This document shows positions 6,000 through 45,846 of a stretch of 64,000 nucleotides of DNA, one piece after another; the first letter of the stretch is position 1; the number at the start of each line of letters is the position of its first letter. Source of the DNA: a phage. The position numbers were made by a program, and so were the translations under genes. Under the pieces are notes generated by a model. The model made no database searches. It worked only from the letters and a program-made list of their open reading frames with translations, and was not told where the DNA came from. The stretch lies in assembly GCA_018175075.1 (NCBI GenBank), contig GCA_018175075.1_4100.2; one strand, written 5' to 3'.

Positions 6000-6728
6000 A
6001 TGATAGATAATATAAAATTTGCAACAGAAATGGCGAATCAACTCAATATTGCAAATTTCCAAATGTTAACATCTGTTATGGCTGAACATGCTGCGGCATA
6101 TTCATCTAGCGGTATACAATGTGGACAAGCTAACATGTTAGCTGATGTTTATAGTGAAGTTCAAAGCAAACAATATAGCGTAAAGACATACAAGGATAAG
6201 TTCGTAAGTCTTTATATGAATGAAGATATTTCAGAAGACCGCAAATTCACCGATTTTATTATTGAACGCCGTATTAGTGGGGTTTCAGACCCAAATGCAG
6301 CAAGTGATATTGTATTCGATGAGGTATTAAAAGATATATATGAAAATGAATTGAAAAGTAAGAATCATTACAATGTACGTGAAACTAACACAGTGCTAGT
6401 TGGATATGATGAAGACGACCAATATTTCTATTTTCGTATAACAGAAGTTCCATTTGAATATAAAAAACCATCCACTACATCGGTAAAAGAATTCACTGAG
6501 AAGAGTAAAAACTTCAAGAAACACGAAGGAAACCGTTGTAGTATTAATGGTTATGATGAAAATGGTGTTCATGTTTATGAATGGGTTTCACCTAATTGCC
6601 AAACATACACTCGTTGCTTGAAAAAACGTTATAATTTAGAAGAGCATGAATCATTCTATTTTAAAGTTAAGAAGCAAGGTTACACTCGCCCCGCCGATTC
6701 TGAATTGATGGGTATGATATATTTCTAA
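6000..6728 (+). CDS. hypothetical protein
   Basis: ORF with ATG start. Confidence 0.5.
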   Translation: MIDNIKFATEMANQLNIANFQMLTSVMAEHAAAYSSSGIQCGQANMLADVYSEVQSKQYSVKTYKDKFVSLYMNEDISEDRKFTDFIIERRISGVSDPNAASDIVFDEVLKDIYENELKSKNHYNVRETNTVLVGYDEDDQYFYFRITEVPFEYKKPSTTSVKEFTEKSKNFKKHEGNRCSINGYDENGVHVYEWVSPNCQTYTRCLKKRYNLEEHESFYFKVKKQGYTRPADSELMGMIYF

Positions 6729-6738
6729 GGAAACTTCT

Positions 6739-7020
6739 ATGGATTTTTATCTACACACATGGACATACGAACAATATATTACATTATATCTTGAAATTAT
6801 TAACACAGAACCTAGGTGTGGTTGTTGGTTCGCAGATATCATAAAAGAGTATGCTGACGAGTTCGAGTTTGTGTATCTTGGGTCTGATATATTTGTAAAA
6901 AGTGTAGGTAAAACCGGACGAATCACTGATATAGATTACGACACTGTTAGTGTGAATTTCTATGTTGATTTTCCTGATGCTGGCGTTGATGGTGTATATT
7001 GTCTTTATGAAATAATTTAA
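6739..7020 (+). CDS. hypothetical protein
   Basis: ORF followed by terminator. Confidence 0.5.
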   Translation: MDFYLHTWTYEQYITLYLEIINTEPRCGCWFADIIKEYADEFEFVYLGSDIFVKSVGKTGRITDIDYDTVSVNFYVDFPDAGVDGVYCLYEII

Positions 7021-7027
7021 ATTCTTA

Positions 7028-7051
7028 GGCCAGCGTTTGCTGGTCTTTTTT
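7028..7051 (+). terminator. intrinsic terminator
   Basis: Hairpin CCAGC...GCTGG plus T-run. Confidence 0.6.
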
Positions 7052-7064
7052 CGCAGGTACAAAG

Positions 7065-7367
7065 ATGTTCAGTATAGATTTAATTAACAGTACTATCAAA
7101 ATGTTGGCTGATTTGGTGAGACAATCAAATGGAACTTTATATTCTGCAATGTATAAAATGTTTGACCGATATATCAAGGATTGTAACATATCATTATATG
7201 GACTTGCTGTTGATATAGACGATTACTATGGAATTAATACTTCATATAAAACAGGAATTTTAATTGGTATTAATATAAAGATGGGGTATTTCCCTTATTA
7301 CTGTATAGGATTACCAGATAATACTTTGGTAGAATATCCAGCCAGTACTATTAAATTAAGAGGATAA
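7065..7367 (+). CDS. hypothetical protein
   Basis: ORF. Confidence 0.5.
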   Translation: MFSIDLINSTIKMLADLVRQSNGTLYSAMYKMFDRYIKDCNISLYGLAVDIDDYYGINTSYKTGILIGINIKMGYFPYYCIGLPDNTLVEYPASTIKLRG

Positions 7368-8904: not shown

Positions 8905-10043
8905 CCCTTTTACAAATATATGAAGATTTAATGCACTTATGTAATACAAACGATGCGTTTTTTTATGTGGATCATAAAAGTCCTGCTGGTGGTACGTATC
9001 GTGTATTCAGTTATCGTCTAGCATCATACACTGATTTCATGCAACCAAATGCGTTGGAAACCCGTGGCTCTATGTGGGAAATTGATGAAGAAGGTGACAT
9101 GATACGTTGTGCAGCACGTACAATGAAAAAGTTCTTCAATGCTTACGAGAATCCTGCTACAATGTTCCCTGCTAACACCACATGCGATGACATTGCGGTA
9201 GTGATGCCTAAGTTGGATGGTTCGATTATCAGTACTTATCGTGATAATGATGGTGAGATTCGTTGTAAATCACATACTGCATTGTATTCTGACCATGCGA
9301 TTAACAGTACTCGACTTATTAACGAGAACCAGAATTTGTACCAGTACATCGACGAAGCGGAACGTTTAGGTTACACAGTTAATATGGAGTATACAAGCCC
9401 AGAGTACCGAATTGTATTACCATATCAGGTAGAACAACTGTTTGTACTGAACGTTCGACATCGTGTGAGTGGTGAGTTGCTATGTGGTAAAGCACTACGT
9501 GATAAGTTTCCATGTCTTGCACAGTACAGTACTAATATGACTGGAAAAGATATTCATCACACTTTTCCGGTACGAAATACCTTCCGTGAAAGCGTGGAGG
9601 AAGTTCATAAAATGCTTGATATTGAGGGTTTTGTGTGCATCCTAAATAATGGGACAATGTGTAAAATAAAGACTGACTGGTACAGTTCATTACATCTTAC
9701 AAAAGATAGTATTATTATTGATTCTCATTTATATGAAGCAGTATTAAATGGTTCAAGTGATGATTTAAAACAATTGTTCAGTACTGATGAATATGCTATG
9801 CAAAAGATATTAAGAATGGAACAATTGGTATTTTCGTGCTATAATGCATTACAAGATGAAGTAGAAAGCTTCGTCAAGGAACACAAGCACTTGGAGCGAA
9901 AGGAATTCGCAATGAAGGTTCAGGAGTGTTTAACTAATGAACTGAATCGTCAGGGCTTGGCCTTTGCAATGTATAACAATAAGAAAGTTGATTACAAAGA
10001 GACTCTTATAAAATACATGAAAATTGTACTAAAGGATTTTTAG
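8901..10043 (+). CDS. rnlA: RNA ligase 1 (T4 gp63-like)
   Basis: N-terminal region closely resembles T4 Rnl1 as I recall it (FFY...YR.FSY..ASY.D...P.ALE.RG.M.E); length 380 aa; RBS GAGGT. Confidence 0.85.
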   Translation: MTLLQIYEDLMHLCNTNDAFFYVDHKSPAGGTYRVFSYRLASYTDFMQPNALETRGSMWEIDEEGDMIRCAARTMKKFFNAYENPATMFPANTTCDDIAVVMPKLDGSIISTYRDNDGEIRCKSHTALYSDHAINSTRLINENQNLYQYIDEAERLGYTVNMEYTSPEYRIVLPYQVEQLFVLNVRHRVSGELLCGKALRDKFPCLAQYSTNMTGKDIHHTFPVRNTFRESVEEVHKMLDIEGFVCILNNGTMCKIKTDWYSSLHLTKDSIIIDSHLYEAVLNGSSDDLKQLFSTDEYAMQKILRMEQLVFSCYNALQDEVESFVKEHKHLERKEFAMKVQECLTNELNRQGLAFAMYNNKKVDYKETLIKYMKIVLKDF

Positions 10044-14833: not shown

Positions 14834-15440
14834 CAGTGCATATGTAATCGGTATTATTATTTCTGGTATGCTTGCATATAACTATAACCGAAGTGTTCTA
14901 GGTTATGTAGTACTTGGTACAGTACTAAGTCCAGTGATTGCCATTGGTCTTCTTGTTATGCTAGGTGAGAAAAATACAAGCTTCTTTATTACTAAAGAAC
15001 TTGATAAAATCACTCCAGCACCAGAAACAGTTATTCCAGAAGTTAAAGAAGAAGTTAAAGAAGTTGAAGTTCAAATGCAAGTTAAAGTGTATAATACACT
15101 TGAAGAAACTGATCCTAAAGTTGTAGTGAATGTAGTTCCAGTCGTTGAAGATGTGAAACCAAAAGCTCCTAAAGTACAGAAAAATACTAAAACTGCAAAG
15201 AAAGCTCGTTACACTAAAGGTAAGAACAAAGGTAAATCTAAGGATGAACCACAACTAGGTGTTCATGACCATACTGCACAAATTGCAACGGCAGCGACCG
15301 CAGCAGCAATCGTAACATCACCAATCTACAACAATGATGATTACAGTGATTATAGCCGTCACAGCAGTTCTTCCTCTGATTCTTGTTCCTATGATAGCTC
15401 TAGTTCTGATTCAAGTTCATCGTCTGGAAGTTGTGATTAA
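14811..15440 (+). CDS. membrane protein with Lys/Val/Glu-rich linker and Ser/Asp-rich C-terminal tail
   Basis: Two N-terminal hydrophobic segments; C-terminus SSSSSDSCSYDSSSSDSSSSSGSCD. Confidence 0.5.
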   Translation: MLTPIILSSAYVIGIIISGMLAYNYNRSVLGYVVLGTVLSPVIAIGLLVMLGEKNTSFFITKELDKITPAPETVIPEVKEEVKEVEVQMQVKVYNTLEETDPKVVVNVVPVVEDVKPKAPKVQKNTKTAKKARYTKGKNKGKSKDEPQLGVHDHTAQIATAATAAAIVTSPIYNNDDYSDYSRHSSSSSDSCSYDSSSSDSSSSSGSCD

Positions 15441-15769
15441 TGTCAATGAAACCACTAATTCAACATAATATTTTTTATAGGTCATTATTCAAAATTCAAG
15501 ATGATTTTTATCAGACGTTGAGTAATGATCTTATAGGTAAAACTGTACGATATTCGGAACAATACATCAAACGTATGACAAGTCAGTATATTGACCCTGA
15601 ATACGAATACGACATTGAACACATTAATCCCAATACTAGAATGAAAATCATTGAGATATTTAAGAATGGGAGAACTATAGGTGCTGAAATTGAGTACTTG
15701 AATTGTGATTGTTACATAGATACAGAGTTGAGTTTGGATTATCTTGTTTTAGTGGATGATGAGGAATAA
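15440..15769 (+). CDS. small paralog-family protein (dispersed member)
   Basis: LIGKTVRYSEQY motif. Confidence 0.45.
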   Translation: MSMKPLIQHNIFYRSLFKIQDDFYQTLSNDLIGKTVRYSEQYIKRMTSQYIDPEYEYDIEHINPNTRMKIIEIFKNGRTIGAEIEYLNCDCYIDTELSLDYLVLVDDEE

Positions 15770-15771
15770 TT

Positions 15772-15987
15772 ATGATAACATTTTTTGCAATATATGGATT
15801 TGTAGCATTTGTTACATTTATAACCAACTTTCTAGTACTTAATTGGGGTTGTTTTAAAGATGAAATCATGATTATCATGAATCTCCAAACAGCAGCACTG
15901 ATGGCTATTATTTGGCCTGTAACATTAGTATATATTTTTATTTCACTTACCCAAGATATTATTAACAAATATAAGAGAAAGAAATAA
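15772..15987 (+). CDS. small membrane protein
   Basis: Hydrophobic ORF. Confidence 0.45.
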   Translation: MITFFAIYGFVAFVTFITNFLVLNWGCFKDEIMIIMNLQTAALMAIIWPVTLVYIFISLTQDIINKYKRKK

Positions 15988-16238
15988 TGTTCAACACTGA
16001 CTTATCACATCTGCGATATCTTATGTCTTTGGCTGATGATTTTATAAATGATCTGAAGCCAAAATATATTGGTCAAGAAGTACGATTAATAAACTCCAGA
16101 GGGTATGGAAAGTATATTATTACTGATATGTATATTAGTGGTGGTGAATGGCGTTTTAAAATTAATACTTATCTTAAAGATGGTTCTTTTGCTGGAACAC
16201 AAGTTACTAAACACACTAATATTATATGGTTGGAGTAA
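15987..16238 (+). CDS. small paralog-family protein (dispersed member)
   Basis: KPKYIGQEVRLIN motif. Confidence 0.5.
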   Translation: MFNTDLSHLRYLMSLADDFINDLKPKYIGQEVRLINSRGYGKYIITDMYISGGEWRFKINTYLKDGSFAGTQVTKHTNIIWLE

Positions 16239-16240
16239 TA

Positions 16241-16984
16241 ATGAAACACTTCTTAGAAGTAACCGTACCTGATGATAAAGATTTATACATTGTAGGTGAT
16301 TTGCATGGTAATGGTAAACTATGGGATGCTACAGTGAAAGAATTTGGTATTACACACAATGATTATGTTTTCAGTGTAGGTGATATTATCGACCGTGGAG
16401 AACAAAATTCAAAGCTCCTTTTTGAATTTTTGTTCGGAGAAAATCGTTACATGATTGCGGGTAATCATGAGATGATGTGCGTTGATTCGGAAACACTTCG
16501 AGATTGGTATCATTGTTGGATAAGTAATGGTGGTGATAAATTCCTTGATGAAGTTGGAGGAACAGGCATTCAATTCTTTCGTCAGTACTTAAAGGATCTC
16601 CCTATGATTATCCAAATCAATCACCGAGGATTGAAGATTGGGTTAGTTCATGCTGGTGTTCCGTTGGAATATACAACATGGGAACGATTTGTTAATGGGA
16701 CAAAATCACTTAGTGCTGATATAATTGATAAGTGCTTGTGGGATAGAAAAACATTCGATTATTGTAGAACTAATAATACATATTATGCACCTAAGTTAGA
16801 TGGAGTGCATTGTGTCTTTAGTGGACATACAGCAGTTACAGATCCACTCATTTACGGTAATCGCATTTGGATTGATAGTCAGTTCTTGACGGGTGACTTA
16901 ACTCTCGCTACTCCACAAAGTGGTGGAATGAGATACTTACGTAAAGAAAAAGATGAGTACTCATTCAATCGTTTCAAAAGGTAA
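16241..16984 (+). CDS. Ser/Thr protein phosphatase (PPP family, lambda-PPase-like)
   Basis: GDLHGN, GDIIDRG and GNHE motifs; start at ATG 16241 after GGAG. Confidence 0.8.
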   Translation: MKHFLEVTVPDDKDLYIVGDLHGNGKLWDATVKEFGITHNDYVFSVGDIIDRGEQNSKLLFEFLFGENRYMIAGNHEMMCVDSETLRDWYHCWISNGGDKFLDEVGGTGIQFFRQYLKDLPMIIQINHRGLKIGLVHAGVPLEYTTWERFVNGTKSLSADIIDKCLWDRKTFDYCRTNNTYYAPKLDGVHCVFSGHTAVTDPLIYGNRIWIDSQFLTGDLTLATPQSGGMRYLRKEKDEYSFNRFKR

Positions 16985-16989
16985 TAATT

Positions 16990-17232
16990 ATGCATGATGT
17001 AGTTAAAAAATATTTGAATGATAGATATATTATGAAAAAATCTATTAATTCTATCCTAAAAGACCATGCTAATCAAATACGTGAGATTCTATCAAATAAA
17101 CTTATTGGTTGTTCAGTTGAGTTCAACTACAAAAAGAATGTCGTGAAGATTGGAGTTATTAAACGTGTAGTTGCTGTTTATGACCAAAAGTATATGTTGA
17201 AATTGAATATGATGGTAAATTATCACAATTAA
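16990..17232 (+). CDS. small paralog-family protein (dispersed member)
   Basis: NKLIGCSVEFNY motif. Confidence 0.45.
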   Translation: MHDVVKKYLNDRYIMKKSINSILKDHANQIREILSNKLIGCSVEFNYKKNVVKIGVIKRVVAVYDQKYMLKLNMMVNYHN

Positions 17233-17268
17233 GTACTGAAGATTTAACATTTTTATAAGGAAATAGAA

Positions 17269-17496
17269 ATGAAAGTAATTCAAGTTATGGTAGAAAAATA
17301 CCAAACTGAAGATGGTCGTATTTTTGATTCAGCTAAACAAGCTGAACACCATGAACGTATTATTTCGGGTGCACGTAAAGTATGTCCTACATGTAATGGA
17401 ACACAACAAGTACCGTCAGAAGATTACCGCAGCTTTTATGCTTGTCCACACTGTGATGGGAAAGGCTACGTAGAAAAACAAGAGGTATGGAAATGA
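17269..17496 (+). CDS. small zinc-finger protein (CxxCxGxG type)
   Basis: CPTCNGT and CPHCDGKG motifs. Confidence 0.5.
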   Translation: MKVIQVMVEKYQTEDGRIFDSAKQAEHHERIISGARKVCPTCNGTQQVPSEDYRSFYACPHCDGKGYVEKQEVWK

Positions 17497-17906
17497 AATT
17501 GTATTGTTTAACTAATATGTACTGCCAAGGTGTCCAAGCTGGTATTCAAGCATTCCATGCTGGTGTTAAACTAATTAAAGAATATGAAGGTACTGCTTTC
17601 AGTACTATTATTGATGAATGGTACTATGAACACGAAACTATTGTAGTACTAAATGCTGGTGGACATGATAAGTTAAATTCTTATTATAACAACCTTAGCA
17701 AACAGGGAAAAGTTCCGTTTGCCAAATTCAATGAAGCTGGATTGAATGATGCTATTACCTGTGTAGCAGTACTGTGTACGTCTGAAATGATTGAAGACAT
17801 GGCTGTTATGCGTATGAATCTTCCTGCTGGTGATCAACTAATGCAAGTAAAATATGGTGCATTGTTTGACACACTAAAAGCAATCAGTACAATGAGGACT
17901 ATTTGA
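17487..17906 (+). CDS. hypothetical protein
   Basis: ORF. Confidence 0.5.
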   Translation: MEMKLYCLTNMYCQGVQAGIQAFHAGVKLIKEYEGTAFSTIIDEWYYEHETIVVLNAGGHDKLNSYYNNLSKQGKVPFAKFNEAGLNDAITCVAVLCTSEMIEDMAVMRMNLPAGDQLMQVKYGALFDTLKAISTMRTI

Positions 17907-26265: not shown

Positions 26266-26874
26266 ATGAAAAGACTATGGCTTGAGGTAGTACAAGCAGT
26301 AATGCTTCTGATGTTGATAAATTTTCCAGCCAGTGCTGGTATTGAAAGTAAAAATGTGATAAAGTACAATCCTGAAACACGTAATGTATATTTCATCTCA
26401 GATATTACGGATGGGTCACTAAAGCGTATGATGGAGTTGTATGATAAAGAACACTATGATACCATTACCATCACATCGCCAGGTGGTGATTTTGATGCTG
26501 GGATTAAAATGGCAAACTTCGTTAGAGACAATGGTATAAATTTAATTGTTTCTAGGTATTGCAACTCAGCATGTACTGTGGTATTCTTCAGTGTAGCTTT
26601 TGAAAAGCGATACATGATAAATCGCTCAGTACTGGGTCTTCATAACATTTCGATTAAAAGTAATGTTACTGATGGTGATAATTCATTTGTGTCTGTAAGA
26701 CAGCTATCAACTTTTACCGAAGAAATGGCAACAAAGGTAGGTTTCCTTTTTTCACTATATGCAGCAAATGGAATCCCACCAGAAGTTCTATTTAGAGTTA
26801 GTCGTTCTCGTGGTGAAGATGTTGTAATATTAACAAAACCAGAACTGGTTTTTTACGGTTCAGTCAAACAATAA
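26266..26874 (+). CDS. secreted ClpP/S49-fold serine protease-like protein
   Basis: N-terminal signal peptide (hydrophobic core, AGI); ITSPGGDFDAG and NSAC motifs resembling the ClpP SPGG and Ser-site regions; a His is present. Confidence 0.5.
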   Translation: MKRLWLEVVQAVMLLMLINFPASAGIESKNVIKYNPETRNVYFISDITDGSLKRMMELYDKEHYDTITITSPGGDFDAGIKMANFVRDNGINLIVSRYCNSACTVVFFSVAFEKRYMINRSVLGLHNISIKSNVTDGDNSFVSVRQLSTFTEEMATKVGFLFSLYAANGIPPEVLFRVSRSRGEDVVILTKPELVFYGSVKQ

Positions 26875-26944: not shown

Positions 26945-27205
26945 ATGACAAACATCCAAAACTTGACATCTATTATTTTTTATGCTACTGTAGTAATGTA
27001 TGCTACAGTTATTTTTCTAACAGTTTTCATTTACAAAGATTATCGTAATGGCTTTATTGATCCAACTACAATGAAGTTCAATTCAAAATTCGAAGCAATA
27101 ATTTATTATGTACTATCAACTTCATACTTGGTGTGCCTAATGTTGTTAGGAGCACTAATTTATATCTTATACACAACATTATTTGCAATTGGAGCTATTT
27201 TATGA
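26945..27205 (+). CDS. small membrane protein
   Basis: Two hydrophobic segments. Confidence 0.45.
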   Translation: MTNIQNLTSIIFYATVVMYATVIFLTVFIYKDYRNGFIDPTTMKFNSKFEAIIYYVLSTSYLVCLMLLGALIYILYTTLFAIGAIL

Positions 27206-27795
27206 CCTGTATTATTGCACACACTGACGGAGTAAGTTCTTTTATTGCTGGGGATAAGTTAGGAAGCAATGGATTTACAAAAACTGTTCAAACTGAGCCA
27301 AAGGTATTCGAGAAAGAATTTATCAAGTTACATGATGATGGACTAACTAGAACTAAAGAAGTAATGGCATTGGGTTATACTACATCATTTCGTATGGGTC
27401 AGTTGTTAAATTATAACCTTAATTTACCTGAACAAGATGCTAGTCAAACATTTTCACAATATTTGGTTCTTAAAGTTATTCCAATCATTCGTCAAATGTT
27501 TAAAGAAGAATGGGGTGCACGAGATGCATCACAAGATGTAGGTGGTGGACAATTTATCATTCTCCACAATCATACAATCTATGAAGTTCAAGAAGACTTT
27601 TCAGTACTACAACCTAAAACAAGAATTACCGCAGTAGGTAGTGGGACATATCATGCAATTGCAGCAATGCAAGCATATATTGAAGTTGAGAACGAATCTA
27701 AAAAACCACTACACGAACGTATCAAATCAATTTTTAAAATTGTTAGTGATAATGTAACAAGCGTAAGCGAAGAGTTTGATGTTTTAAAATATTAA
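27202..27795 (+). CDS. HslV/proteasome-like Ntn-hydrolase peptidase
   Basis: Predicted N-terminus MTCIIAHTDG...IAGDK and AVGSGTYHAIAAMQAY, compared with E. coli HslV TTIVSV...IAGDGQ and IAIGSGGPYAQAAARA; Thr2 would be N-terminal after Met removal. Confidence 0.5.
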   Translation: MTCIIAHTDGVSSFIAGDKLGSNGFTKTVQTEPKVFEKEFIKLHDDGLTRTKEVMALGYTTSFRMGQLLNYNLNLPEQDASQTFSQYLVLKVIPIIRQMFKEEWGARDASQDVGGGQFIILHNHTIYEVQEDFSVLQPKTRITAVGSGTYHAIAAMQAYIEVENESKKPLHERIKSIFKIVSDNVTSVSEEFDVLKY

Positions 27796-27822: not shown

Positions 27823-28023
27823 ATGATGGCATACACAATTTATGAATGGGTTTTGAGTTTTTTTATAGTTTTTTCTATTGTTGTAATTTATAACAATGCT
27901 AAATGCTTATATAGAGACTTGAAATCCAATGGTTATCACAAAGATAATAATTTTATGTATGCCTATCATATTGGAATCATTCTGTTATTATCAATATATT
28001 TAATTGTTTTTTATAAGGATTGA
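27823..28023 (+). CDS. small membrane protein
   Basis: Hydrophobic ORF. Confidence 0.45.
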   Translation: MMAYTIYEWVLSFFIVFSIVVIYNNAKCLYRDLKSNGYHKDNNFMYAYHIGIILLLSIYLIVFYKD

Positions 28024-28025
28024 AT

Positions 28026-28778
28026 ATGATATCAGAAAAATTTATAAGCAATGAAGGTAAAAAGCGATTACTGATTATATCAGGTGCAGGACTTTCTGTT
28101 GAAAGTGGTATGGAACCTTTTCGATTTGATGATGGTTTGTGGGATACATTTAAAATTAATGATGTATGTAACATTGCTAGTTTAACTACGAAATATCACG
28201 TTGTTCATTCCTTCTATAATACATTACGTGTAAAATTGGGACAATGCGAACCCAATGCAATGCATTATTTTATAAAATCGTTAGAAGATCAATATGGTGA
28301 TTGCTTCCTTCATATGACTTCTAACATGGACGATCTTTATACTCGTATTGGTGGTCATGAGCTTAAACTTCATGGAAACTTGTGCGAAGTTATTGAAAAT
28401 TATAGTATCAATTCCGATGATTATAATGTTATTAACTGCGGATACGAACCATACATACCAAAACATGATGTTTTTGCTAAACCAAATGTAGTAATGATTG
28501 GAGAATATCATCGTTATGTTGATGGTATTCGCTTACCAATTTACGAAGAACGAAATAATGTGTTGAAATCTCTTAATGAAAATGATACAGTTATTGTAAT
28601 TGGTAGTAGCGATACAGTACTGGTATGGTCGAGATTAGCAGCAGCATTACCATGTTATAGTGTTAATGTTAACATTCGTAAAAATGATAATGATTTTTTG
28701 TTTAATGAAAAAGTTATCAAGCCAGCAACCAAAGCAATACCGCATCTAGAGACTATAATTAAGGAACGTATGAAATGA
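28026..28778 (+). CDS. Sir2-family (sirtuin-like) NAD-dependent protein
   Basis: GAGLSVESGMEPFR NAD-binding motif and LHGN catalytic His motif; start at ATG 28026. Confidence 0.65.
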   Translation: MISEKFISNEGKKRLLIISGAGLSVESGMEPFRFDDGLWDTFKINDVCNIASLTTKYHVVHSFYNTLRVKLGQCEPNAMHYFIKSLEDQYGDCFLHMTSNMDDLYTRIGGHELKLHGNLCEVIENYSINSDDYNVINCGYEPYIPKHDVFAKPNVVMIGEYHRYVDGIRLPIYEERNNVLKSLNENDTVIVIGSSDTVLVWSRLAAALPCYSVNVNIRKNDNDFLFNEKVIKPATKAIPHLETIIKERMK

Positions 28779-29326
28779 GTGTTAAAGAAGTTCCCTTTGG
28801 TGAATATGGCACACGTGCAAATTTTGTATTTTGTTATTTCTTTGCAAGAAAATGCAACCCTTACAAAAACTATGAGTTGAATGATATACCAGAAGTAAAT
28901 TTAGTATTACTGCAATTACGATGGGATGGTCTTCTTGGTGGATGTGGTGGAACCGTAGAAAGTACTGATATCTCACTAGAAGATGCGTTGCGTCGTGAAG
29001 TTCAAGAAGAAATGGATTACAATATTTTTGTTTCCCATCTTCGACCACTCAAAACTTTTGAAATTTACCCAGGTGCAAACAGTCACAGTTTTAGCTATGA
29101 AGTAACCTATGACGAGTTGAAACACATTAGAGATGGATACACTAATGCTAAACATGCAAGTGCAGAAGTTGCTGGTGTAAATTTATGTCATATTTCTCGT
29201 TATTCTAAGGGACAAAATCGAGAAGCGGGATATAATAATCTTATGACACAGAACTTCATCGGTACAGCAAAACAAGAATTGGAGTATCTGGTTCAAAAAG
29301 AAAACTTACTAATTAGTTATCTATAG
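28775..29326 (+). CDS. Nudix-like hydrolase
   Basis: GCGGTVE ... REVQEE matches a Nudix box with atypical spacing. Confidence 0.45.
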   Translation: MSVKEVPFGEYGTRANFVFCYFFARKCNPYKNYELNDIPEVNLVLLQLRWDGLLGGCGGTVESTDISLEDALRREVQEEMDYNIFVSHLRPLKTFEIYPGANSHSFSYEVTYDELKHIRDGYTNAKHASAEVAGVNLCHISRYSKGQNREAGYNNLMTQNFIGTAKQELEYLVQKENLLISYL

Positions 29327-29335
29327 GAGTTTAAC

Positions 29336-29656
29336 ATGTCTTACTCAATGTTTTTGGATGATATTCGTGATGCAAATCTATATTATCCAAACCAAGATAT
29401 GGTGGTATGTCGTGACTTTAAAAGTGCATGTGAATATGTTATTGAAAATGGAATTCCAGCATTTGTATCATTCGACCATGACTTGGGTGATGTGAGCGAA
29501 GACGAAAAGACTGGATATTCTTTTGCTAAGTTTCTTATTGATTATATGTTTGATAATAATATTAAAGAACCGTTTGAGTACTTTGTTCACAGTAGTAATC
29601 CTGTTGGTAAAATTAATATTGAAACATACTTAAACAATGGATTTAACTCATTATGA
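29336..29656 (+). CDS. hypothetical protein
   Basis: ORF; RBS GGAG. Confidence 0.5.
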   Translation: MSYSMFLDDIRDANLYYPNQDMVVCRDFKSACEYVIENGIPAFVSFDHDLGDVSEDEKTGYSFAKFLIDYMFDNNIKEPFEYFVHSSNPVGKINIETYLNNGFNSL

Positions 29657-29955
29657 TTCAAACACACATCAAAAGTCTTATTTGTACTGTTCTGTTAGGT
29701 GCAGGAGTTCTTTGGTTCGGACAGTATCACGAGAACACTAAGCGTACCAACATTCACTACAATACCGCAGAAGTTGTTAGTTTAGGACAATGTAGCGAGT
29801 CCAAATGTTCATTTATGTATAAAACCCAAAGTGGTGAAGTACGTAATGGACTATCAAGAGAACCAGTTTCAATTGGTCAACTTGTTTACCAGGAGTGCTG
29901 GGAAGAAAAGGTTCGAGGTTCACGTTGCTATGTTGAATACGAACCAAATATGTAA
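29653..29955 (+). CDS. small membrane protein
   Basis: N-terminal TM segment; conserved cysteines. Confidence 0.45.
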   Translation: MIQTHIKSLICTVLLGAGVLWFGQYHENTKRTNIHYNTAEVVSLGQCSESKCSFMYKTQSGEVRNGLSREPVSIGQLVYQECWEEKVRGSRCYVEYEPNM

Positions 29956-30015
29956 TAATCCGAGTCAATAACATTAGTCGAGTACAAGGATGTACTCATA
30001 ACTCAAGGATGTTTT

Positions 30016-31455
30016 ATGAAAAAATATACAATTGACACAAACGTACTACTATCTGACCCTAATGCATCTATTGCTTTTGATGGTGCTGCAATCATTCTAC
30101 CATTTACAGTACTGGAAGAATTGGATTCAATTAAGAGTCGTAATGTAGATGTTTCACGCGATGCTCGTGTTGCTATTCGTAACATTGAAGCAATTATTGC
30201 AGATGCATCACATGATGAGATTAGTAGTACTGGTGTTAATATTGCTGATGTTCATACCAATATGAATCCTGATAGCAAATTGTTTGTTATTACAAACGAA
30301 GAAGCTGAAGCACTAATTCGTACTAAAGGTTCAGAAGAGAAAGTTCAAACCCTTCTCAAAAGCACAGTACCTGATGATAAAATCATTCTGGTAGCTTTAG
30401 CAACAGAATCAGTACTGGTAACTCGTGATATCAACATGCGTATCAAAGCACTAAGTTATGGTGTCGAGGTACAAGATTATCGCCATGATATTGTTATTGG
30501 TGATAGTGATTTGATTCACATTGGTCAACACCATTTGGAAATCAATTTTTGGGAAGTATATAGCAACTTAACCAATACTAATATTCAATCCGAACAAGTT
30601 GGTCGTCGTTTGTATCATTACATTTCCAAAAGCTTGATTGAGCATTTGCTCCCACAAAATCTATGCATCGGGGATTATCTATATGATGATGCAGACGTAT
30701 TATTTGTGTACGAAGGTCAATCAGCAATTGAGGAAGATGATGGAACACTAACACCAGAAGATATTTTGGTATTCCAAGATATTGGACAATCAGTAGCTTT
30801 ACGTGCTAAAGTATGGGATATTAAAGCAAAGAATATCCAACAAGCACTCGCCATCAACAGTATTCTCGATCCTGATGTACATCTAACAGTACTGCTAGGT
30901 TCTGCTGGTACTGGTAAAACACTAATTACGATTGCGACTGCATTAGAATTAGTACTGGAAAAACGTAAATACGACCGAATCATCTTCTCTAAAACTCAAG
31001 ACTCACAGTTTGAAGATATTGGTTTCTTGCCAGGTTCAGAAGCAGAAAAAGTGATTCCATTCTGTGGAGCCGCAATTGACGCGTTAGAGTTTCTTCATAA
31101 AGATGATGCTAACCCTCAAGGTAGTATTGAAGAGATTATGAAACGTAATGTTATTCAATTTAAAGCACTAAACTTTGTACGTGGACGTTCATTCACCAAC
31201 ACTATTCTAGTAGTTGATGAATTCCAAAACATTACACCTGCACAAGCCAAAACAATCTTGACACGAGCAGGATTAAACTGTAAAGTAGTAATTATGGGTA
31301 ACTTGAGTCAGATTGACAGTAAGTTTATTAGTCCTGTTAACAGTGGTTTGACATATGTAACTGAGAAGTTTAAAGATTGGGCAGGTTGTCGTGTCATCGA
31401 ACTAGAAGGTGTTGTTCGTTCACCACTTGCAGAATTTGCTGAAGAAAATATGTAA
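30016..31455 (+). CDS. phoH: PIN-domain / PhoH-like ATPase
   Basis: N-terminal IDTNVLL (PIN-like); Walker A LLGSAGTGKT; Walker B-like ILVVDEFQN; RBS AAGGA. Confidence 0.8.
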   Translation: MKKYTIDTNVLLSDPNASIAFDGAAIILPFTVLEELDSIKSRNVDVSRDARVAIRNIEAIIADASHDEISSTGVNIADVHTNMNPDSKLFVITNEEAEALIRTKGSEEKVQTLLKSTVPDDKIILVALATESVLVTRDINMRIKALSYGVEVQDYRHDIVIGDSDLIHIGQHHLEINFWEVYSNLTNTNIQSEQVGRRLYHYISKSLIEHLLPQNLCIGDYLYDDADVLFVYEGQSAIEEDDGTLTPEDILVFQDIGQSVALRAKVWDIKAKNIQQALAINSILDPDVHLTVLLGSAGTGKTLITIATALELVLEKRKYDRIIFSKTQDSQFEDIGFLPGSEAEKVIPFCGAAIDALEFLHKDDANPQGSIEEIMKRNVIQFKALNFVRGRSFTNTILVVDEFQNITPAQAKTILTRAGLNCKVVIMGNLSQIDSKFISPVNSGLTYVTEKFKDWAGCRVIELEGVVRSPLAEFAEENM

Positions 31456-39804: not shown

Positions 39805-42501
39805 ATGTCAAAGAAAATATATGGTGGCTTAGATGTCACACATAATGTGACAGTTAATGGTAAAAGAACAATTCAAGGAATAAATGAACAAGTTTTTGAT
39901 TCCAACGGTAACTTGGAATTAGATACTTATTCCAGAGATGAAGTACTAGATATAGTAAGTATGATGCCAATCTCCCATTATGGTTCACAAAACTATCTAC
40001 CTGCGGGTGTTTCTGGGGATTTCAATGGTGCATCAGAAAACCAGTCACAACGTAGAAATAAAATTTTATTAGAAAACGATGGTACACTAGTACTTTTACG
40101 TAGTGGGACAAACGGTAGTGTTGAGGGATTATTTTATTCATATTTGGCTAACGCATTATCAGTTGATGACATGAGCCGTACAATTAACACTAGTCGTCAA
40201 TACAAGCCTGGGTTTTTTGGTTCAAATAGAGTTGCGATTGGTTTATACAATACTGATCCAAATATTTTACTCGGTAGATATATTGATACTTCTAACAGTA
40301 CTAATGGTTTGTTCATATCAATTACCAATGGTACATTAGATGATAAATTGCATACTGGTTTTTTCGTTAACCAAGCAGATATATCACCTGAAGGTGGTAT
40401 TGAATATGCTATGATGGCAGAAGATGGTTCTATATATGTTTTTAACGTACTTAATGAAAATAACCAACTACAATTAGTTGTTGTTAAAGTTGTTTATAAT
40501 ATAAGCAATGGTACTTATACTGCAACTCGAATTACTGGATGGACTACTAAAACATTTTATAACACGACATATTCTGCACAAAATAATATGGTTATTACTA
40601 ATCAGGTAACATCAACAAATATTGCTGATAAACCTTATGTGTATGTTCCACAAAATCTACGCGGTATTGGGATTTACATGACATCAATTGATTTATATGT
40701 TGCACAGCAGCCAGGAACGCAGAATTTCCGCTTTAGAATGAACGGGGATGCTTGGTTTACAATGGCAACATATAATACACGTCCACAGCATAGTTACAGT
40801 TTTGTGTTCAATATGAGTACTAAACAATGTACATTAGATGCGGGTAACGATATTGGTTCATATCAAGCACCATTAGTTATAACTAATACTGGTTCGGCAT
40901 TAGTTCCTACTGGTAACGTTTTAAATAACGATCCATTGTATAACCATGCAAATGCAAGAAACATTTATAGTTCATATTTTTATTTAAATTCAGGTGAAGC
41001 ATTTTGTACTGCATGTCCAAACTTAGCAGAACCATTACTTATGCAAAAAGCTAAGTTTCCTATTCAAATAGTTTATAGTATGCTGAATGTCCGTGCTGTA
41101 CTTTCTACTGACTTCAAAGGTGGTATAGTTCGCCCGTCTTTTGGTTCAGCGGTTGGTTCATTTATTAATGGTGTAGAATTACTACCAGATAACAGTACTA
41201 AACAATATTCACGTGCATCAGGTAGTGGTGGATTTAGACCATCATATGCAGTTCATAAAAGTACTCCTAATTTTACATTTAAATCATTATCTTTAGGAAC
41301 AATACAAGGTTATGAACCTACAGTTGAACGTGCTAATGTTGATGATAATGCAAATAATAGAATTTTTATTAGTAGTATTTCTGGGTCAACTGTCACAACC
41401 AATGGTGGTATTTTTATGGTTGGGAAACGTTATTCACAATCATTATCCTATGATAAAAACTTAAATGGCACAGGAATTATAAGCGTTACACAATCAGTAC
41501 TGGACAATTTTAGAAATACTGAATATGCCAAAGTTCTAAGTGATTGGAATTTATCAGCACAAGCATACCGTGATATGACACTATTTGTTCCACAACAAAC
41601 AGACATTCCAGCTTTTGTTATGTTGAGTACAATTACTAATGATTATAGAAACTATATTAGAATTGCTGAAGTTAATGTCAATACTAGAGTTGGTAATATT
41701 ACATCTATTACATTTAAGCGTTTAGTACTTGAGAATACGTATGGTGATAACTTTACACCAACTGGGAATGGTTCGATTGCATCTTCTTCTGTTGGTTTGA
41801 CCATATATGATGGTGGTTCATTCTACTTCATTGGTGGTTCTGACCCATTATCACATCCAACAATAGGTAATACTGCAACTCATCAATTTAGAGCATATGT
41901 AACTAAATCAACTGCACAATTTACAAGTTTTATAATTACTGGATCTCATGCCAGTTATGAACAAGGAAGTCAACCAGCAGCATTACCTGGTATTGGTTTT
42001 GGAATTTTTGAACCAATGGATTACTCAAATAAAATGACATTCAAAAAATATGGAACAACGATTGCAGACTATAATAACTGGACTGCACAAGGTAGCCCAA
42101 TTAACGTAGTATCCCAGGACGTTGCTCAAGGGTTTATTGTATATTTTACAGAGGAAACACCAGTTATTCTTTCAGGTAAGTCATTTTCACTACCAGTTTC
42201 AAATATTGATTTGAGAACTATTAAGTCTAATCCAGCAAATACAACATTTTATGTATATGTTAAATTGGAACAAGGATTGGCAAACTATTACATAACTACT
42301 GATGTTATTTCTGAAACAGGAACAACTGCATATAATATTTTTTGGATAGGTACAATTCAAACTAATGCAATTCAAATCGAAACAATTAATATACAAAAAC
42401 GTTCCCGTTTAGATATATTTGGTGCTTCACTTGAATCAGCAGGTTCATCGTTCCCAGTTAGCTACGGTCTACCATCACAAACAGGAACCATAAACTGGTA
42501 A
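39805..42501 (+). CDS. large fibre-like structural protein (paralog A)
   Basis: 898 aa, Ser/Thr/Asn/Gly-rich; shares N-terminal (LRSGTNGS) and C-terminal (GSSFPVS.G.PS.TGT..W) blocks with 43117..45846. Confidence 0.5.
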   Translation: MSKKIYGGLDVTHNVTVNGKRTIQGINEQVFDSNGNLELDTYSRDEVLDIVSMMPISHYGSQNYLPAGVSGDFNGASENQSQRRNKILLENDGTLVLLRSGTNGSVEGLFYSYLANALSVDDMSRTINTSRQYKPGFFGSNRVAIGLYNTDPNILLGRYIDTSNSTNGLFISITNGTLDDKLHTGFFVNQADISPEGGIEYAMMAEDGSIYVFNVLNENNQLQLVVVKVVYNISNGTYTATRITGWTTKTFYNTTYSAQNNMVITNQVTSTNIADKPYVYVPQNLRGIGIYMTSIDLYVAQQPGTQNFRFRMNGDAWFTMATYNTRPQHSYSFVFNMSTKQCTLDAGNDIGSYQAPLVITNTGSALVPTGNVLNNDPLYNHANARNIYSSYFYLNSGEAFCTACPNLAEPLLMQKAKFPIQIVYSMLNVRAVLSTDFKGGIVRPSFGSAVGSFINGVELLPDNSTKQYSRASGSGGFRPSYAVHKSTPNFTFKSLSLGTIQGYEPTVERANVDDNANNRIFISSISGSTVTTNGGIFMVGKRYSQSLSYDKNLNGTGIISVTQSVLDNFRNTEYAKVLSDWNLSAQAYRDMTLFVPQQTDIPAFVMLSTITNDYRNYIRIAEVNVNTRVGNITSITFKRLVLENTYGDNFTPTGNGSIASSSVGLTIYDGGSFYFIGGSDPLSHPTIGNTATHQFRAYVTKSTAQFTSFIITGSHASYEQGSQPAALPGIGFGIFEPMDYSNKMTFKKYGTTIADYNNWTAQGSPINVVSQDVAQGFIVYFTEETPVILSGKSFSLPVSNIDLRTIKSNPANTTFYVYVKLEQGLANYYITTDVISETGTTAYNIFWIGTIQTNAIQIETINIQKRSRLDIFGASLESAGSSFPVSYGLPSQTGTINW

Positions 42502-42512
42502 AGGATTACATA

Positions 42513-43100
42513 ATGGCATATAAAATAAGAGCAGACCTTAAGGCAATGCAACAAGTAACAGTTCAGGGTAAAAGTACTGGTCTTGGTGTATTAGGTAATA
42601 ATATGACTTATTACCCAACAAATTCAAATGGGGAATGTACATTCCCCTCTATTACCAAAGATGAAGTTAACTTTATTGTCAATGGATTACCACTTACACA
42701 ATACGGAGAATTGTATGATGACGCTAGTCTAAATATTACTTCATCAGGCTATAGTCTTACATTTAACAGACAGATACCATCATTTATTGGTGGTTATCTT
42801 TATAAATTTCCAGCAGTTTCTATTTTTGCTTCAACTGTTTCATCTGGAACACAAACACAATACGTATATGCAACGTTAGTTCTCGGTGAACCAATTTATA
42901 AAATATCACCAACACAAATACAAGAATCTGAAATTATAATGTTTATTGGAACACTGACCGTTGGTACAAGTGGTATTACAAATATAAACATTAATAAAGT
43001 ATCCAGATTTAGTACATATAGACCTAGTGTTACACAAAAAGGTTCTTCATTCCCAGTCAGTACTGGAAAACCATCAGAAACTGGTACAATTGGTTGGTAA
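42513..43100 (+). CDS. short fibre-like paralog (195 aa)
   Basis: C-terminus ...YRPSVTQKGSSFPVSTGKPSETGTIGW matches neighbours. Confidence 0.5.
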   Translation: MAYKIRADLKAMQQVTVQGKSTGLGVLGNNMTYYPTNSNGECTFPSITKDEVNFIVNGLPLTQYGELYDDASLNITSSGYSLTFNRQIPSFIGGYLYKFPAVSIFASTVSSGTQTQYVYATLVLGEPIYKISPTQIQESEIIMFIGTLTVGTSGITNININKVSRFSTYRPSVTQKGSSFPVSTGKPSETGTIGW

Positions 43101-43116
43101 ATTAAGGAAAAGAAAG

Positions 43117-45846
43117 ATGTCATCAAAACGAATTATAGGAAGTGCCGAGATCCTTGGGAACTTGGCAATTGGACAAAGGTACGCTATGCGTACTTTTAAT
43201 GGAACCTCACCGAATGCCAATACTGGAATTGTTCAATATCCAATATATAAGCGTTCAGAAGTTCAAAGTATTTTAGATATGTTGCCTATATCACGTGTAG
43301 GAGAAATGGATTACTTACCATTAAACGTAAGTGGATCGTATGAAGGTGCTACACCTATGTCAAGTGACCAAGTAGTTCAGCCAACAATTATTGAAGATGA
43401 TGGAACCGCCGTTGTTCTGCGTAGCGGAACCAATGGTAGTACTAAAGGTTTTTATTATTCATTTATACGAGATCTCCGAAATATAACTATGATTTCACAA
43501 GAAAGTGTTATTTCAACCAATTCAATGTATAAACCTTCAATTATGAGTAGTACTGAAAATATTAAGTATTTTATTGGCTCTAATGGTTATGAGATGCTTG
43601 GATGTTTAAGTACTGAAGATAATTATATTTTTACTATAACCAATGGCACATTTAACGAAATATCACATATTCATGCTAAAGTTCCAAGTACTTCTTTTGG
43701 TAATGATATGCCAATATATACACATATTGTTGGGACAAAGGTTTATATTTGGTGTAAAGATAAAAGTGTTTCTAATTTAGGATTAGCACTTTCAATTTAT
43801 ACAGTAGAGCTAAGTGATGTGAAAGCAAGCTCAATGGCATCATTAACAAAAGTTACTGGGTTATCAGGTCAAACTGTTCGAAACACAAGTTATTCTGCAT
43901 CTAATAACATAAGAGTGTTCGATAAATTATATAGTGTTGGTACTAGCTCGGATTCATTATTCGAAGTTACATCACCAGTATCACGTGTAGAATTTTCAGA
44001 CTATACAGACTTTAACATTCAAGCCAACGTTAGTCCTGATTTATCAAAAATACGTGTAACTTTATATCCAACACATCGAATGGTTACACCTTTGTATATT
44101 TCAACAGTTTATGGTACTGGAATAAGTTTTGTTTATAATATAAACTCAAAATCTATGTCACTAGATGGTAGTGCTCGTGCACCTGCAACTGTTTCATATA
44201 ATAATGGATTTCAAGTTTCTAACCCATTTGAAATTAATATGGTCAACTTCACAGGGACAACTGCTGCTGGTGTATTAGGAAACGCAGGTGGTTTATGTCA
44301 AACTAAAGATGGTTTGGTATTTGCATCTAAATTTAGATGGAGTTCAACTGAATTTTATGGTCTACAACGATATAAGGTTAGTGGTACACCGTTTGATTCA
44401 TGGGTTGCCAGTACTAGAACCGCAAGTAACGTTATAAATGCAAACGTTTTACCAGTTTTTGGTAGTGCTGTTGGTGCAAACCTTTTAGGTGTACGTTTCA
44501 TCGATAATAGAAAAATATTATTAGCATGTTCTGGTACGTATGATGATGTAACATATAATTATAATAATACTGTTTTTTCTGAAATAGGTTCACAACCAAC
44601 ATATCAATATAACTCAGTTCAAAATAATACTACATTAAATGGTTTTGCACCACAATCTAATCGTAAACAAATAGGCGATGATTTTACATACACTGCTATG
44701 ATTTCTCTTGTTGATACCGATGGTAGTGTTAGATGCTATGGAACATCATTCATTGAAGGTGTATATAAAACAAGTGGTGGATTATTAAACCCAGATACTT
44801 TAGAATTTGATGAAACATATACAATAGAACCAACGGTATTAGAATCATTAAAACAAGATATTTTTGCTAATATAGGAAACTCTGGCATTGTTGGCACACT
44901 ATCTGGACAAATTGTATTATATTATGTACCTGATAATACTTTTTCTAAATCCATCGCAGTAGTTTCAGCATATAATCTTAACAATAACCAAGGTTATGCA
45001 ATCTATGCCGAAGTTGATGTTGTATTATCTGGAACTAACATAACTTCAGCTACATTGGTGAGTACTAGATATGAGACACTTAGTTCTGTTACAGGAATTA
45101 TTACTGAAGCATATATGAAACGTTGTACTGGTCTAACAGTTGCAAAATATTCAGGATTTGGTTACATTGGTGTTGATGCTGTTCATCAATTTTCACAACC
45201 AGGTAATGCACAATTTAAGATGATGATAGCTAAAACAGTAGATGGTGTCATAACATCAAATCGTTTTTTATCATCTAGTTACATCCAACTTGGTGCAGCA
45301 TATCAACATGGTGTTATTCCTGGTGTTGGTTTTGGATATTACAATTTTCAAGATTCTGACTATCAAACCAAATCTGTATTCAGCGTTTTTGGTACAACAT
45401 CTGCTGAAATGGATGGTTTAATTAGCGGAAATGGTAGCGTTAAAGAAAAGATTGTGGTAGTATCACAAGACGTTGCACAAGGATTCTCAGTGTACTTTAC
45501 ACGTGAAGTTCCGGTGTTTTTAGGTGGAATTTTCGACAGACTACCTATACAAAGTGTTGATTTAAGTACTGTAAAAAGTAACCCAGCTAATACTACGTTC
45601 TATTTGTATATACAAATGAACAGGAATACTAAGAAAGCGTCATATGTTATTAGTACTGAAACAATTGATGAATCTTTAACTAGCACTTACATTGGTAAGA
45701 TAGTTACTGGAACTTCAGGAATAACTTCAATTGATACAGAAAAAGTAACTCGTTTTTTGACATATCGTCCAAGTACAACGAAACGTGGTTCAGCGATACC
45801 TGCCAGTACTGGTGTACCATCAGGTCCAGGTACACGTTGGAAATAA
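43117..45846 (+). CDS. large fibre-like structural protein (paralog B)
   Basis: Start at ATG 43117 after AAGGAAAAG; shared N- and C-terminal blocks with 39805..42501. Confidence 0.5.
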   Translation: MSSKRIIGSAEILGNLAIGQRYAMRTFNGTSPNANTGIVQYPIYKRSEVQSILDMLPISRVGEMDYLPLNVSGSYEGATPMSSDQVVQPTIIEDDGTAVVLRSGTNGSTKGFYYSFIRDLRNITMISQESVISTNSMYKPSIMSSTENIKYFIGSNGYEMLGCLSTEDNYIFTITNGTFNEISHIHAKVPSTSFGNDMPIYTHIVGTKVYIWCKDKSVSNLGLALSIYTVELSDVKASSMASLTKVTGLSGQTVRNTSYSASNNIRVFDKLYSVGTSSDSLFEVTSPVSRVEFSDYTDFNIQANVSPDLSKIRVTLYPTHRMVTPLYISTVYGTGISFVYNINSKSMSLDGSARAPATVSYNNGFQVSNPFEINMVNFTGTTAAGVLGNAGGLCQTKDGLVFASKFRWSSTEFYGLQRYKVSGTPFDSWVASTRTASNVINANVLPVFGSAVGANLLGVRFIDNRKILLACSGTYDDVTYNYNNTVFSEIGSQPTYQYNSVQNNTTLNGFAPQSNRKQIGDDFTYTAMISLVDTDGSVRCYGTSFIEGVYKTSGGLLNPDTLEFDETYTIEPTVLESLKQDIFANIGNSGIVGTLSGQIVLYYVPDNTFSKSIAVVSAYNLNNNQGYAIYAEVDVVLSGTNITSATLVSTRYETLSSVTGIITEAYMKRCTGLTVAKYSGFGYIGVDAVHQFSQPGNAQFKMMIAKTVDGVITSNRFLSSSYIQLGAAYQHGVIPGVGFGYYNFQDSDYQTKSVFSVFGTTSAEMDGLISGNGSVKEKIVVVSQDVAQGFSVYFTREVPVFLGGIFDRLPIQSVDLSTVKSNPANTTFYLYIQMNRNTKKASYVISTETIDESLTSTYIGKIVTGTSGITSIDTEKVTRFLTYRPSTTKRGSAIPASTGVPSGPGTRWK

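Follow-up and report, generated by a model that had tools for sequence, protein, structure and literature searches.

Is a phage gene that reads like the peptidase half of the bacterial HslUV protease really hslV, and what would such a peptidase do without an ATPase? The question is raised by positions 27202-27795 (+) of a 64,000-nucleotide stretch of phage DNA (NCBI GenBank assembly GCA_018175075.1, contig GCA_018175075.1_4100.2; the whole stretch is called the window here). A first-pass annotation, made from the sequence alone, had read the encoded protein as an HslV/proteasome-like N-terminal nucleophile (Ntn) hydrolase of a T4-like phage, without a partner ATPase in the window. The protein reads MTCIIAHTDGVSSFIAGDKLGS...AVGSGTYHAIAAMQAY...VLKY, and the N-terminal MTC and the motifs quoted in support of that reading are present in the 197-amino-acid (aa) translation; the E. 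coli HslV strings quoted for comparison are also correct, as checked on MG1655 hslV. Our analysis securely assigns the protein to the proteasome/HslV-type Ntn-hydrolase fold (alpha-beta-beta-alpha, proteasome beta) and places it in a phage-borne clade that is a sister of HslV and of BPH, and not HslV itself.

Searched as a single sequence, the protein matched PHROG_1040, named 'peptidase HslV family' (E=4e-24). Pfam left PF00227 (Proteasome) unmatched and returned an insignificant connectase N-domain (E=0.088), and phmmer against PDB stayed at noise level, with recoverin and HslV at E ~1. These weak single-sequence outcomes were resolved by the use of a family profile. Built from an alignment of 40 sequences and searched against PDB, it retrieved proteasome-family chains only, with HslV at the top (E=5.9e-8, aligned residues 1-170) and bacterial and archaeal 20S beta subunits and BPH below it; hhalign to E. 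coli HslV gave a probability of 93.5%. The AlphaFold2 monomer model is confident (predicted local distance difference test, pLDDT, 92.6; predicted template modelling score, pTM, 0.88), and Foldseek matched it to HslV (E=5e-10) and to BPH (TM 0.73/0.78), at about equal structural distance from the two. DSSP assigns helices to residues 63-72, 84-104, 149-161/163-166 and 170-184 of the model and a last strand to 192-196, after which the chain ends. Profile match, structural model and residue conservation thus bear out the proposed relationship to proteasome-type Ntn-hydrolases.

Conservation was assessed over 222 relatives of <50% identity; residues are given in precursor numbering unless marked as mature. 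Thr1, Asp17 and Lys33 (mature) align exactly with the proteasome and HslV positions, and T2, D18, K34 and G146 are 100% conserved across the set, so the N-terminal Thr that had been put forward as nucleophile is present in every distant homolog. G58, which aligns with the oxyanion-hole residue HslV Gly45 / 20S Gly47, is 99% conserved, as are G148 and V188, and position 147, equivalent to 20S Ser129, is mostly occupied in distant members by Cys (54%) or Ser (38%). The oxyanion Gly opens a clade signature, G-[YF]-T-[TS]-S-F-R-M-G-Q-[LI]-L, with T60 at 95%, S62 at 98%, F63 at 90%, R64 at 97% and Q67 at 95%. Cys at mature position 2 is found in 96% of the phage branch; it was considered as an alternative nucleophile and rejected, because actinobacterial members have Ala or Val there while Thr1 is invariant. 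The protein has no propeptide, so that loss of the initiator Met should be enough to expose Thr1. Methionine aminopeptidase accepts substrates in which Thr follows the initiator Met, and from this specificity we infer that the Met is removed.

The likeness to HslV holds for the fold and fails for orthology. Besides leaving PF00227 silent, the protein scored 19.9 and 18.9 bits on the NCBIfam HslV equivalog models NF003964 and TIGR03692 against cutoffs of 137 and 157.75, whereas the E. coli HslV control reached 302 and 288 bits. It differs from HslV by a 4-residue deletion just after the oxyanion Gly, by Cys instead of Thr at mature position 2, by its own T-x-S-F-R-M-G-Q motif, and by a longer, non-basic loop after helix H2, where HslV is gapped in the profile alignment. 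Arg86, Arg89 and Lys90 line the HslV pore (PMC5777263); in the hhalign alignment, which is variable in this region, these basic residues fall opposite Glu103, Ala106 and Arg107 of the phage protein. An adjacent hslU is also missing. Conversely, tblastn with genuine E. coli HslV against phage records did not detect this clade. It gave 14 matches in all, mostly short unannotated 'phage' records with 50-98% identity to bacterial HslV, which look like host-derived DNA because most of them also match HslU. The protein is not an HslV ortholog and belongs to a separate clade.

Several new proteasome homologs without AAA+ partners were described in phages by Fuchs, Alva and Lupas in 2021, among them the AAH group, which is phage-borne, most abundant in Actinobacteria and devoid of a co-occurring AAA+ protein (PMC8665760). 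The present clade, a large phage- and prophage-borne group corresponding to PHROG_1040, probably belongs to AAH (reference sequence WP_035979212 / KEGG OC.661151), to judge by the published descriptors and by exclusion of PPH. Shared with AAH are a compact beta-type subunit of ~180 aa with helices H1-H4, the lack of a propeptide and of the C-terminal S12/H5, the Thr1/Asp17/Lys33 triad, presence in many phages, abundance in Actinobacteria and the lack of AAA+ co-occurrence. The Asteriusvirus protein studied here differs in an additional 19-residue beta-hairpin insertion, and a copy from Streptomyces is located in a prophage, although no link to phages was reported for AAH of Actinobacteria (PMC8665760). 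PPH is likewise a phage-borne group I proteasome homolog without an AAA+ partner, but comprises ~140 residues and lacks helix H2, which the 197-aa window protein has in the model (residues 84-104); PPH was excluded because the clade has H1-H4 and ~180 aa, without propeptide or C-terminal extras. The relation to BPH (PDB 5OVS/5OVT/5OVU) is weak in sequence (profile E=2e-3). The BPH pore loop is strongly acidic where that of the phage protein is mixed (KEEWGARDASQDVGG), and BPH belongs to chromosomal, stress-regulated bacterial operons whereas the present clade is phage-borne.

In public data, clustering at 50% identity yields 8,490 family clusters at E<=1e-3 and at least 2,291 at E<=1e-30. Typical members have 176-190 aa and an M-T start. 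The family occurs in 374 IMG/VR stretches, on contigs of 4-480 kb and 27-71% GC, in at least 37 viral structure clusters of this fold in BFVD, and in ~200 cultured-phage records, in which T5-like Epseptimavirus and Asteriusvirus dominate and which also include Vibrio, Aeromonas, Xanthomonas, Geobacillus, Moorella, Tenacibaculum and Psychrobacter phages. Starting from a member of 69% GC, a search retrieved numerous proteins encoded on chromosomes of Streptomyces, Actinomadura, Dactylosporangium and Nonomuraea; the actinobacterial members score 166-180 bits on the family hidden Markov model (HMM) and share 26-29% identity with the window protein over the full length. The chromosomal copy of Streptomyces sp. 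NBC_01237 lies within a prophage with portal, Peptidase_S78, capsid and methyltransferase genes. A Dactylosporangium copy has a non-phage setting, in the order TetR, AAH-like gene, and then DUF1028, another Ntn-hydrolase family, with a peptidoglycan-binding domain.

Some members depart from the plain single-domain form. In one sub-group (e.g. Vibrio phage 166E36-1, 327 aa), an acidic linker leads to a conserved C-terminal module of ~35 aa, '..ELKEVAKxLGIKYPHNIGIEKLREKI..', which is silent in Pfam and resembles a helix-extension-helix (SAP / Rho-N-like) nucleic-acid-binding motif; by this resemblance, it would anchor the peptidase on DNA or RNA. A 324-kb jumbo-phage contig in IMG/VR carries three paralogs (6001-6549, 6578-7123 and 9097-9765), two of them in tandem, all keeping MTC, Asp17 and Lys33, which suggests possible hetero-oligomeric rings of active subunits. 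In Aeromonas phage 2L372X (genes 210/211, at locus positions 6001-6552 and across the record origin), a family member adjoins a proteasome homolog of ~139 aa ((V)TTIAYKNG...), PPH-like by length, so that two different proteasome-like genes are adjacent in one phage.

The window itself does not come from a T4-like phage. Megablast gave 94-99% identity to Asteriusvirus, jumbo phages of E. coli/Salmonella (PBECO4, 121Q, phAPEC6, G17, UB; ~350 kb), and the T4-type genes present (RNA ligase, polynucleotide kinase (PNK), NrdD, dCMP deaminase) belong to this Asteriusvirus. Nor is a proteasome-like peptidase the unusual feature it had been taken for, given the ~200 cultured-phage records, T5-like phages included. 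RefSeq names the orthologs 'peptidase HslV family' (PBECO4 gp096, YP_009150410.1; 121Q gp475), GenBank submitters label them 'protease' or 'hypothetical protein', and HslV genes without HslU were noted in 2020 in jumbo phage pSal-SNUABM-04 (PMC7823757). The observation is thus real but already known, through the RefSeq and PHROGs label, the orphan phage homologs of 2021 and the jumbo-phage note of 2020.

The first-pass annotation was right that no HslU-like AAA+ gene lies nearby. With E. coli HslU as query, phmmer found nothing at E<1 among all window ORFs (open reading frames) of >=40 aa, and no HslU- or Clp-type ATPase was found within the window on inspection of the 15 ORFs of >=250 aa (11 scanned with Pfam/PHROGs, four by PBECO4 RefSeq annotation). 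Functions assigned to these larger ORFs are RNA ligase, PNK, metallophosphoesterases, DNA ligase, Sir2, PIN-PhoH, NrdD, an RlaP-type nucleotidyltransferase, a tail protein and lysozyme; several are unassigned. A tblastn search with HslU against all phage records matched HslU-like genes of jumbo phages from Erwinia and Salmonella and only four 'Escherichia' records. Because at least 30 records of E. coli phages of the Asteriusvirus group exist, this group is without an HslU homolog. The HslU-like ATPases of Erwinia phages Ea35-70, Special G and Simmy50, Salmonella SPAsTU and others are 33-43% identical to E. coli HslU, and weaker proteasome-fold proteins are present in BFVD for some related phages, e.g. 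Special G and RisingSun; unlike the present orphan, these may form complete phage HslUV-like pairs. One AAA+ protein is encoded in phAPEC6 at a distance: gp265c, MoxR-type (PF00004 at threshold), lies ~57 kb from the peptidase gene, is paired with gp264c, a VWA/DUF2201 metallopeptidase-like protein (N4 gp25-like; the pair lies at 15066-17890 of the phAPEC6 locus), and was detected in virions by mass spectrometry. MoxR-VWA pairing is usual, and such a pair is not a protease unfoldase.

The gene neighbourhood points to no other partner. Across 86 loci, which group into 41 lineages when 60% identity is applied, no gene family is a neighbour in more than six lineages, the commonest being PhoH, dCMP deaminase, ribonucleotide reductase (RNR) and a thymidylate-synthase-like gene, and at none of the 86 loci does an HslU-, HslV- or PPH-like gene stand beside the peptidase gene. 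A second proteasome-like subunit in the form of a PPH-like ORF is also absent from the window. PhoH, found near the peptidase gene in the window, in an Aeromonas phage and at two further loci, was considered as a partner ATPase and discarded: it occurs in only 6 of the 41 lineages, is an RNA-type NTPase (PIN-PhoH) and is a virion protein in phAPEC6. A conserved membrane partner was ruled out as well, as the membrane ORFs that flank the gene in the window have no homologs beside it in EPS7, Vibrio or Aeromonas phages. With few shared neighbours and unconserved flanking ORFs, the peptidase gene therefore moves as a unit of one gene, mostly placed in regions with early or nucleotide-metabolism genes.

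The site of action can be narrowed by published proteomics. Mass spectrometry of phAPEC6 virions identified 62 proteins, and gp345c, 100% identical to the window peptidase, is not among them, while the neighbours gp341c (PhoH-like, 8 peptides) and gp347 were detected (PMC7247149). A separate head-maturation protease is present in these phages (PBECO4 gp105; phAPEC6 gp227c, a core scaffold and protease of the prohead, detected in virions). Because of the absence from virions and the separate maturation protease, the peptidase is considered an intracellular, non-structural protein.

On balance we lean mildly towards a propeptide-free Thr1 peptidase, organized as an HslV/BPH-like double ring, that cuts peptides, unfolded proteins or one substrate intracellularly without a dedicated unfoldase. 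In such a scheme, the protein would be made inside the infected cell and not built into the virion, and host deformylase and methionine aminopeptidase would strip the initiator Met. The hydroxyl of the exposed Thr1, activated by Lys33/Asp17, would attack peptide bonds as in HslV and 20S, assisted by the backbone of conserved Gly58. Subunits would probably stack as a two-ring chamber with the active sites facing inward, by analogy with the HslV dodecamer and the BPH tetradecamer. With no phage unfoldase, it would be left to act on peptides, on proteins that are unfolded or intrinsically disordered, or on a single specific substrate, and this cleavage would presumably benefit the phage.

Several points weigh against this scheme. 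The literature surveyed holds no enzymatic, structural or genetic study of the clade and no reported function. BPH, the closest stand-alone relative, binds epoxomicin at Thr1 and shows no protease activity in standard assays (PMC5777263); because BPH is inactive on standard substrates, 'peptidase' is itself an inferred label for this clade. A role for the AAA+ protein gp265c of phAPEC6 stays formally conceivable, and use of host HslU by this particular phage is possible but unlikely.

The last point deserves fuller treatment, since a peptidase docked on host HslU, replacing or competing with HslV, would make a hybrid ATP-dependent protease directed at folded proteins of the host or of its defences, or would draw HslU away from HslV. 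HslUV is present in E. coli, Salmonella, Vibrio and Aeromonas as well as in the Firmicutes that many phages with a family member infect. The HslU C-tail binds in a pocket of HslV formed by Phe54, Phe57, Lys80 and Gln114 (PMC6429459), and part of it has counterparts in the phage protein by hhalign, in regions of variable alignment: Phe54 aligns with Phe63 (90% conserved), Lys80 with Arg97 (R/K in 73%) and Gln114-Pro115 with Gln137-Pro138 ('VVQP' and 'VLQP', the latter in the Asteriusvirus protein). Pocket residue Phe57, however, aligns with Gly66, and the position of Gln137 varies among family members (Glu 50%, Lys 15%, Gln 9%). The HslU-responsive pore residues Arg86/Arg89/Lys90 are not kept, the 4-residue deletion lies beside the oxyanion Gly, and the HslV equivalog models are missed by >115 bits. 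The family is moreover abundant in Actinobacteria and their prophages, a phylum not marked for HslV (PMC8665760 Table 1); because Actinobacteria without HslUV carry many members, HslU cannot be the general partner of the family. We consider docking on host HslU unlikely.

Little credence is also given to an Ntn-hydrolase with a narrow role, a highly specific amidase or transpeptidase that would carry out a connectase-like ligation, cut one defined protein or hydrolyse an amide in a small molecule. The proteasome superfamily does include the ligase connectase, and the protease activity of BPH is undetectable. The near-invariant T-x-S-F-R-M-G-Q after the oxyanion Gly, with Arg64 at 97%, may reflect a preference for a defined ligand or P1 residue. 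In most cases the gene lies among nucleotide-metabolism and auxiliary genes (PhoH, dCMP deaminase, RNR, thymidylate synthase), and the Dactylosporangium copy adjoins the Ntn-hydrolase DUF1028.

A dedicated infection weapon, either an ATP-dependent protease built on host HslU or an enzyme whose T-x-S-F-R-M-G-Q pocket cleaves one host (e.g. defence or stress) protein, is distinctly unlikely. An accessory 'counter-host' function would fit, because a single mobile gene recurs across phages of such diverse GC content and contig size. PADLOC found no defence-system model matching the peptidase.

A catalytically inert proteasome-fold scaffold, decoy or inhibitor, for instance one that poisons host HslV rings or sequesters HslU, is very improbable. 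Inactive proteasome-fold subunits exist (20S alpha, inactive beta), and the two or three paralogs on some phage contigs are reminiscent of hetero-oligomers, but Thr1, Asp17 and Lys33 are kept at 100% in >200 divergent members and in all three paralogs of the 324-kb contig; because such an invariant triad is the signature of selection on catalysis, the inert scaffold is disfavoured. A protease of virion morphogenesis (prohead maturation) is barely credible: several phage records do say 'protease' and genes for structural proteins of the virion are located a few kb upstream, but a separate maturation protease exists, the peptidase is absent from the virion proteome, its gene sits among early or nucleotide-metabolism genes in other phages, and the prohead proteases known to us belong to the serine or herpesvirus type and not to the Ntn-hydrolases.

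The features of the locus are collected in Table 1. A mechanical ORF list opens the peptidase frame at GTG 27133, but ATG 27202 is the real start, as supported by the GGAG upstream, the ATGA overlap with the preceding ORF and the MTC N-terminus of homologs. The exact M-T-C start is found in 254 of the 269 homologs fetched, and homologs without an M-T start have an internal MTC, VTC or GTC downstream of an evidently mis-called start. In the AlphaFold2 model, the insertion at residues 38-56 is a long beta-hairpin placed between the strand of Lys33 and that of the oxyanion Gly (strands at 35-43 and 50-59; pLDDT ~95); it is carried by Asteriusvirus proteins and missing from most family members (~178-187 aa). 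Residues 101-120, which include the loop after H2, are modelled at lower pLDDT (69-78). A promoter/terminator scan was uninformative, its 38 hits being no excess over the 29.9 +/- 6.7 expected from shuffled sequence.

Table 1. Features of the peptidase locus in window coordinates
Feature	Position	Strand	Basis or remark
Putative AAH-type N-terminal-threonine peptidase, coding sequence, 197 aa	27202..27795	+	Stop codon counted in
Shine-Dalgarno GGAG	27191..27194	+	7 nt before ATG 27202, read from sequence
Thr2 (mature Thr1), ACC codon, predicted catalytic nucleophile	27205..27207	+	Conservation; alignment with HslV Thr1 (hmmsearch, hhalign)
Asp18 (mature Asp17), GAT codon, predicted catalytic triad	27253..27255	+	Conservation; alignment with HslV Asp17
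Lys34 (mature Lys33), AAG codon, predicted catalytic triad	27301..27303	+	Conservation; alignment with HslV Lys33
Lineage-specific insertion of ~19 residues, residues 38-56	27313..27369	+	Family alignment and structure model
Signature G-Y-T-T-S-F-R-M-G-Q-L-L, residues 58-69: oxyanion-hole Gly, then start of helix H1	27373..27408	+	Conservation, alignment
Loop after helix H2, residues 101-117, 'pore loop' position	27502..27552	+	Model and profile alignment
G-S-G, residues 146-148, equivalent to HslV G123-S124-G125 / 20S G128-S129-G130	27637..27645	+	Alignment
86-aa ORF with predicted membrane-spanning segments (context only)	26945..27205	+	ATGA overlap with peptidase start

The 86-aa ORF is translationally coupled to the peptidase gene through the ATGA overlap. 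It has no PHROG or Pfam match, and none of the genes beside the peptidase gene of T5-like, Vibrio or Aeromonas phages is homologous to it. Together with a 66-aa hydrophobic ORF with transmembrane-like segments (27823-28023, +), it brackets the peptidase gene; the 66-aa ORF is likewise unmatched in PHROG and Pfam, and both are unannotated in the PBECO4 RefSeq record. A second putative protease of 202 aa is encoded ~330 bp upstream (26266-26874, +). It has a signal-peptide-like N-terminus (MKRLWLEVVQAVMLLMLINFPASAG), is weakly ClpP-like (Pfam CLP_protease E=0.007; NCBIfam ClpP subfamily E=3e-5) and matches PHROG_26024 'protease' end to end, so that two unrelated protease folds are adjacent in one gene string.

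Directly downstream, 28020-31455 (+) encodes Sir2 (28020-28778), a Nudt16-like Nudix protein (28775-29326), a protein with a cREC_REC ('cyclic-phosphate processing receiver') domain (29336-29656), a 100-aa protein that corresponds to a 'membrane protein' of the PBECO4 annotation, and PIN-PhoH (30016-31455). This cluster has an NAD/nucleotide-signalling flavour and could serve counter-defence. Farther along, 39805-42501 and 43027-45846 (+) encode paralogs of 898 and 939 aa that match PHROG_3573 (function unassigned) at E<1e-260 and contain no Pfam domain.

The window adds no new kind of object and opens no new ground. The interest of the family lies in the use that a virus makes of a protease of the proteasome type, and in whether particles of this kind can function without an unfoldase. 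Since tractable T5-like (Epseptimavirus) coliphages carry the family, its role is directly testable there.

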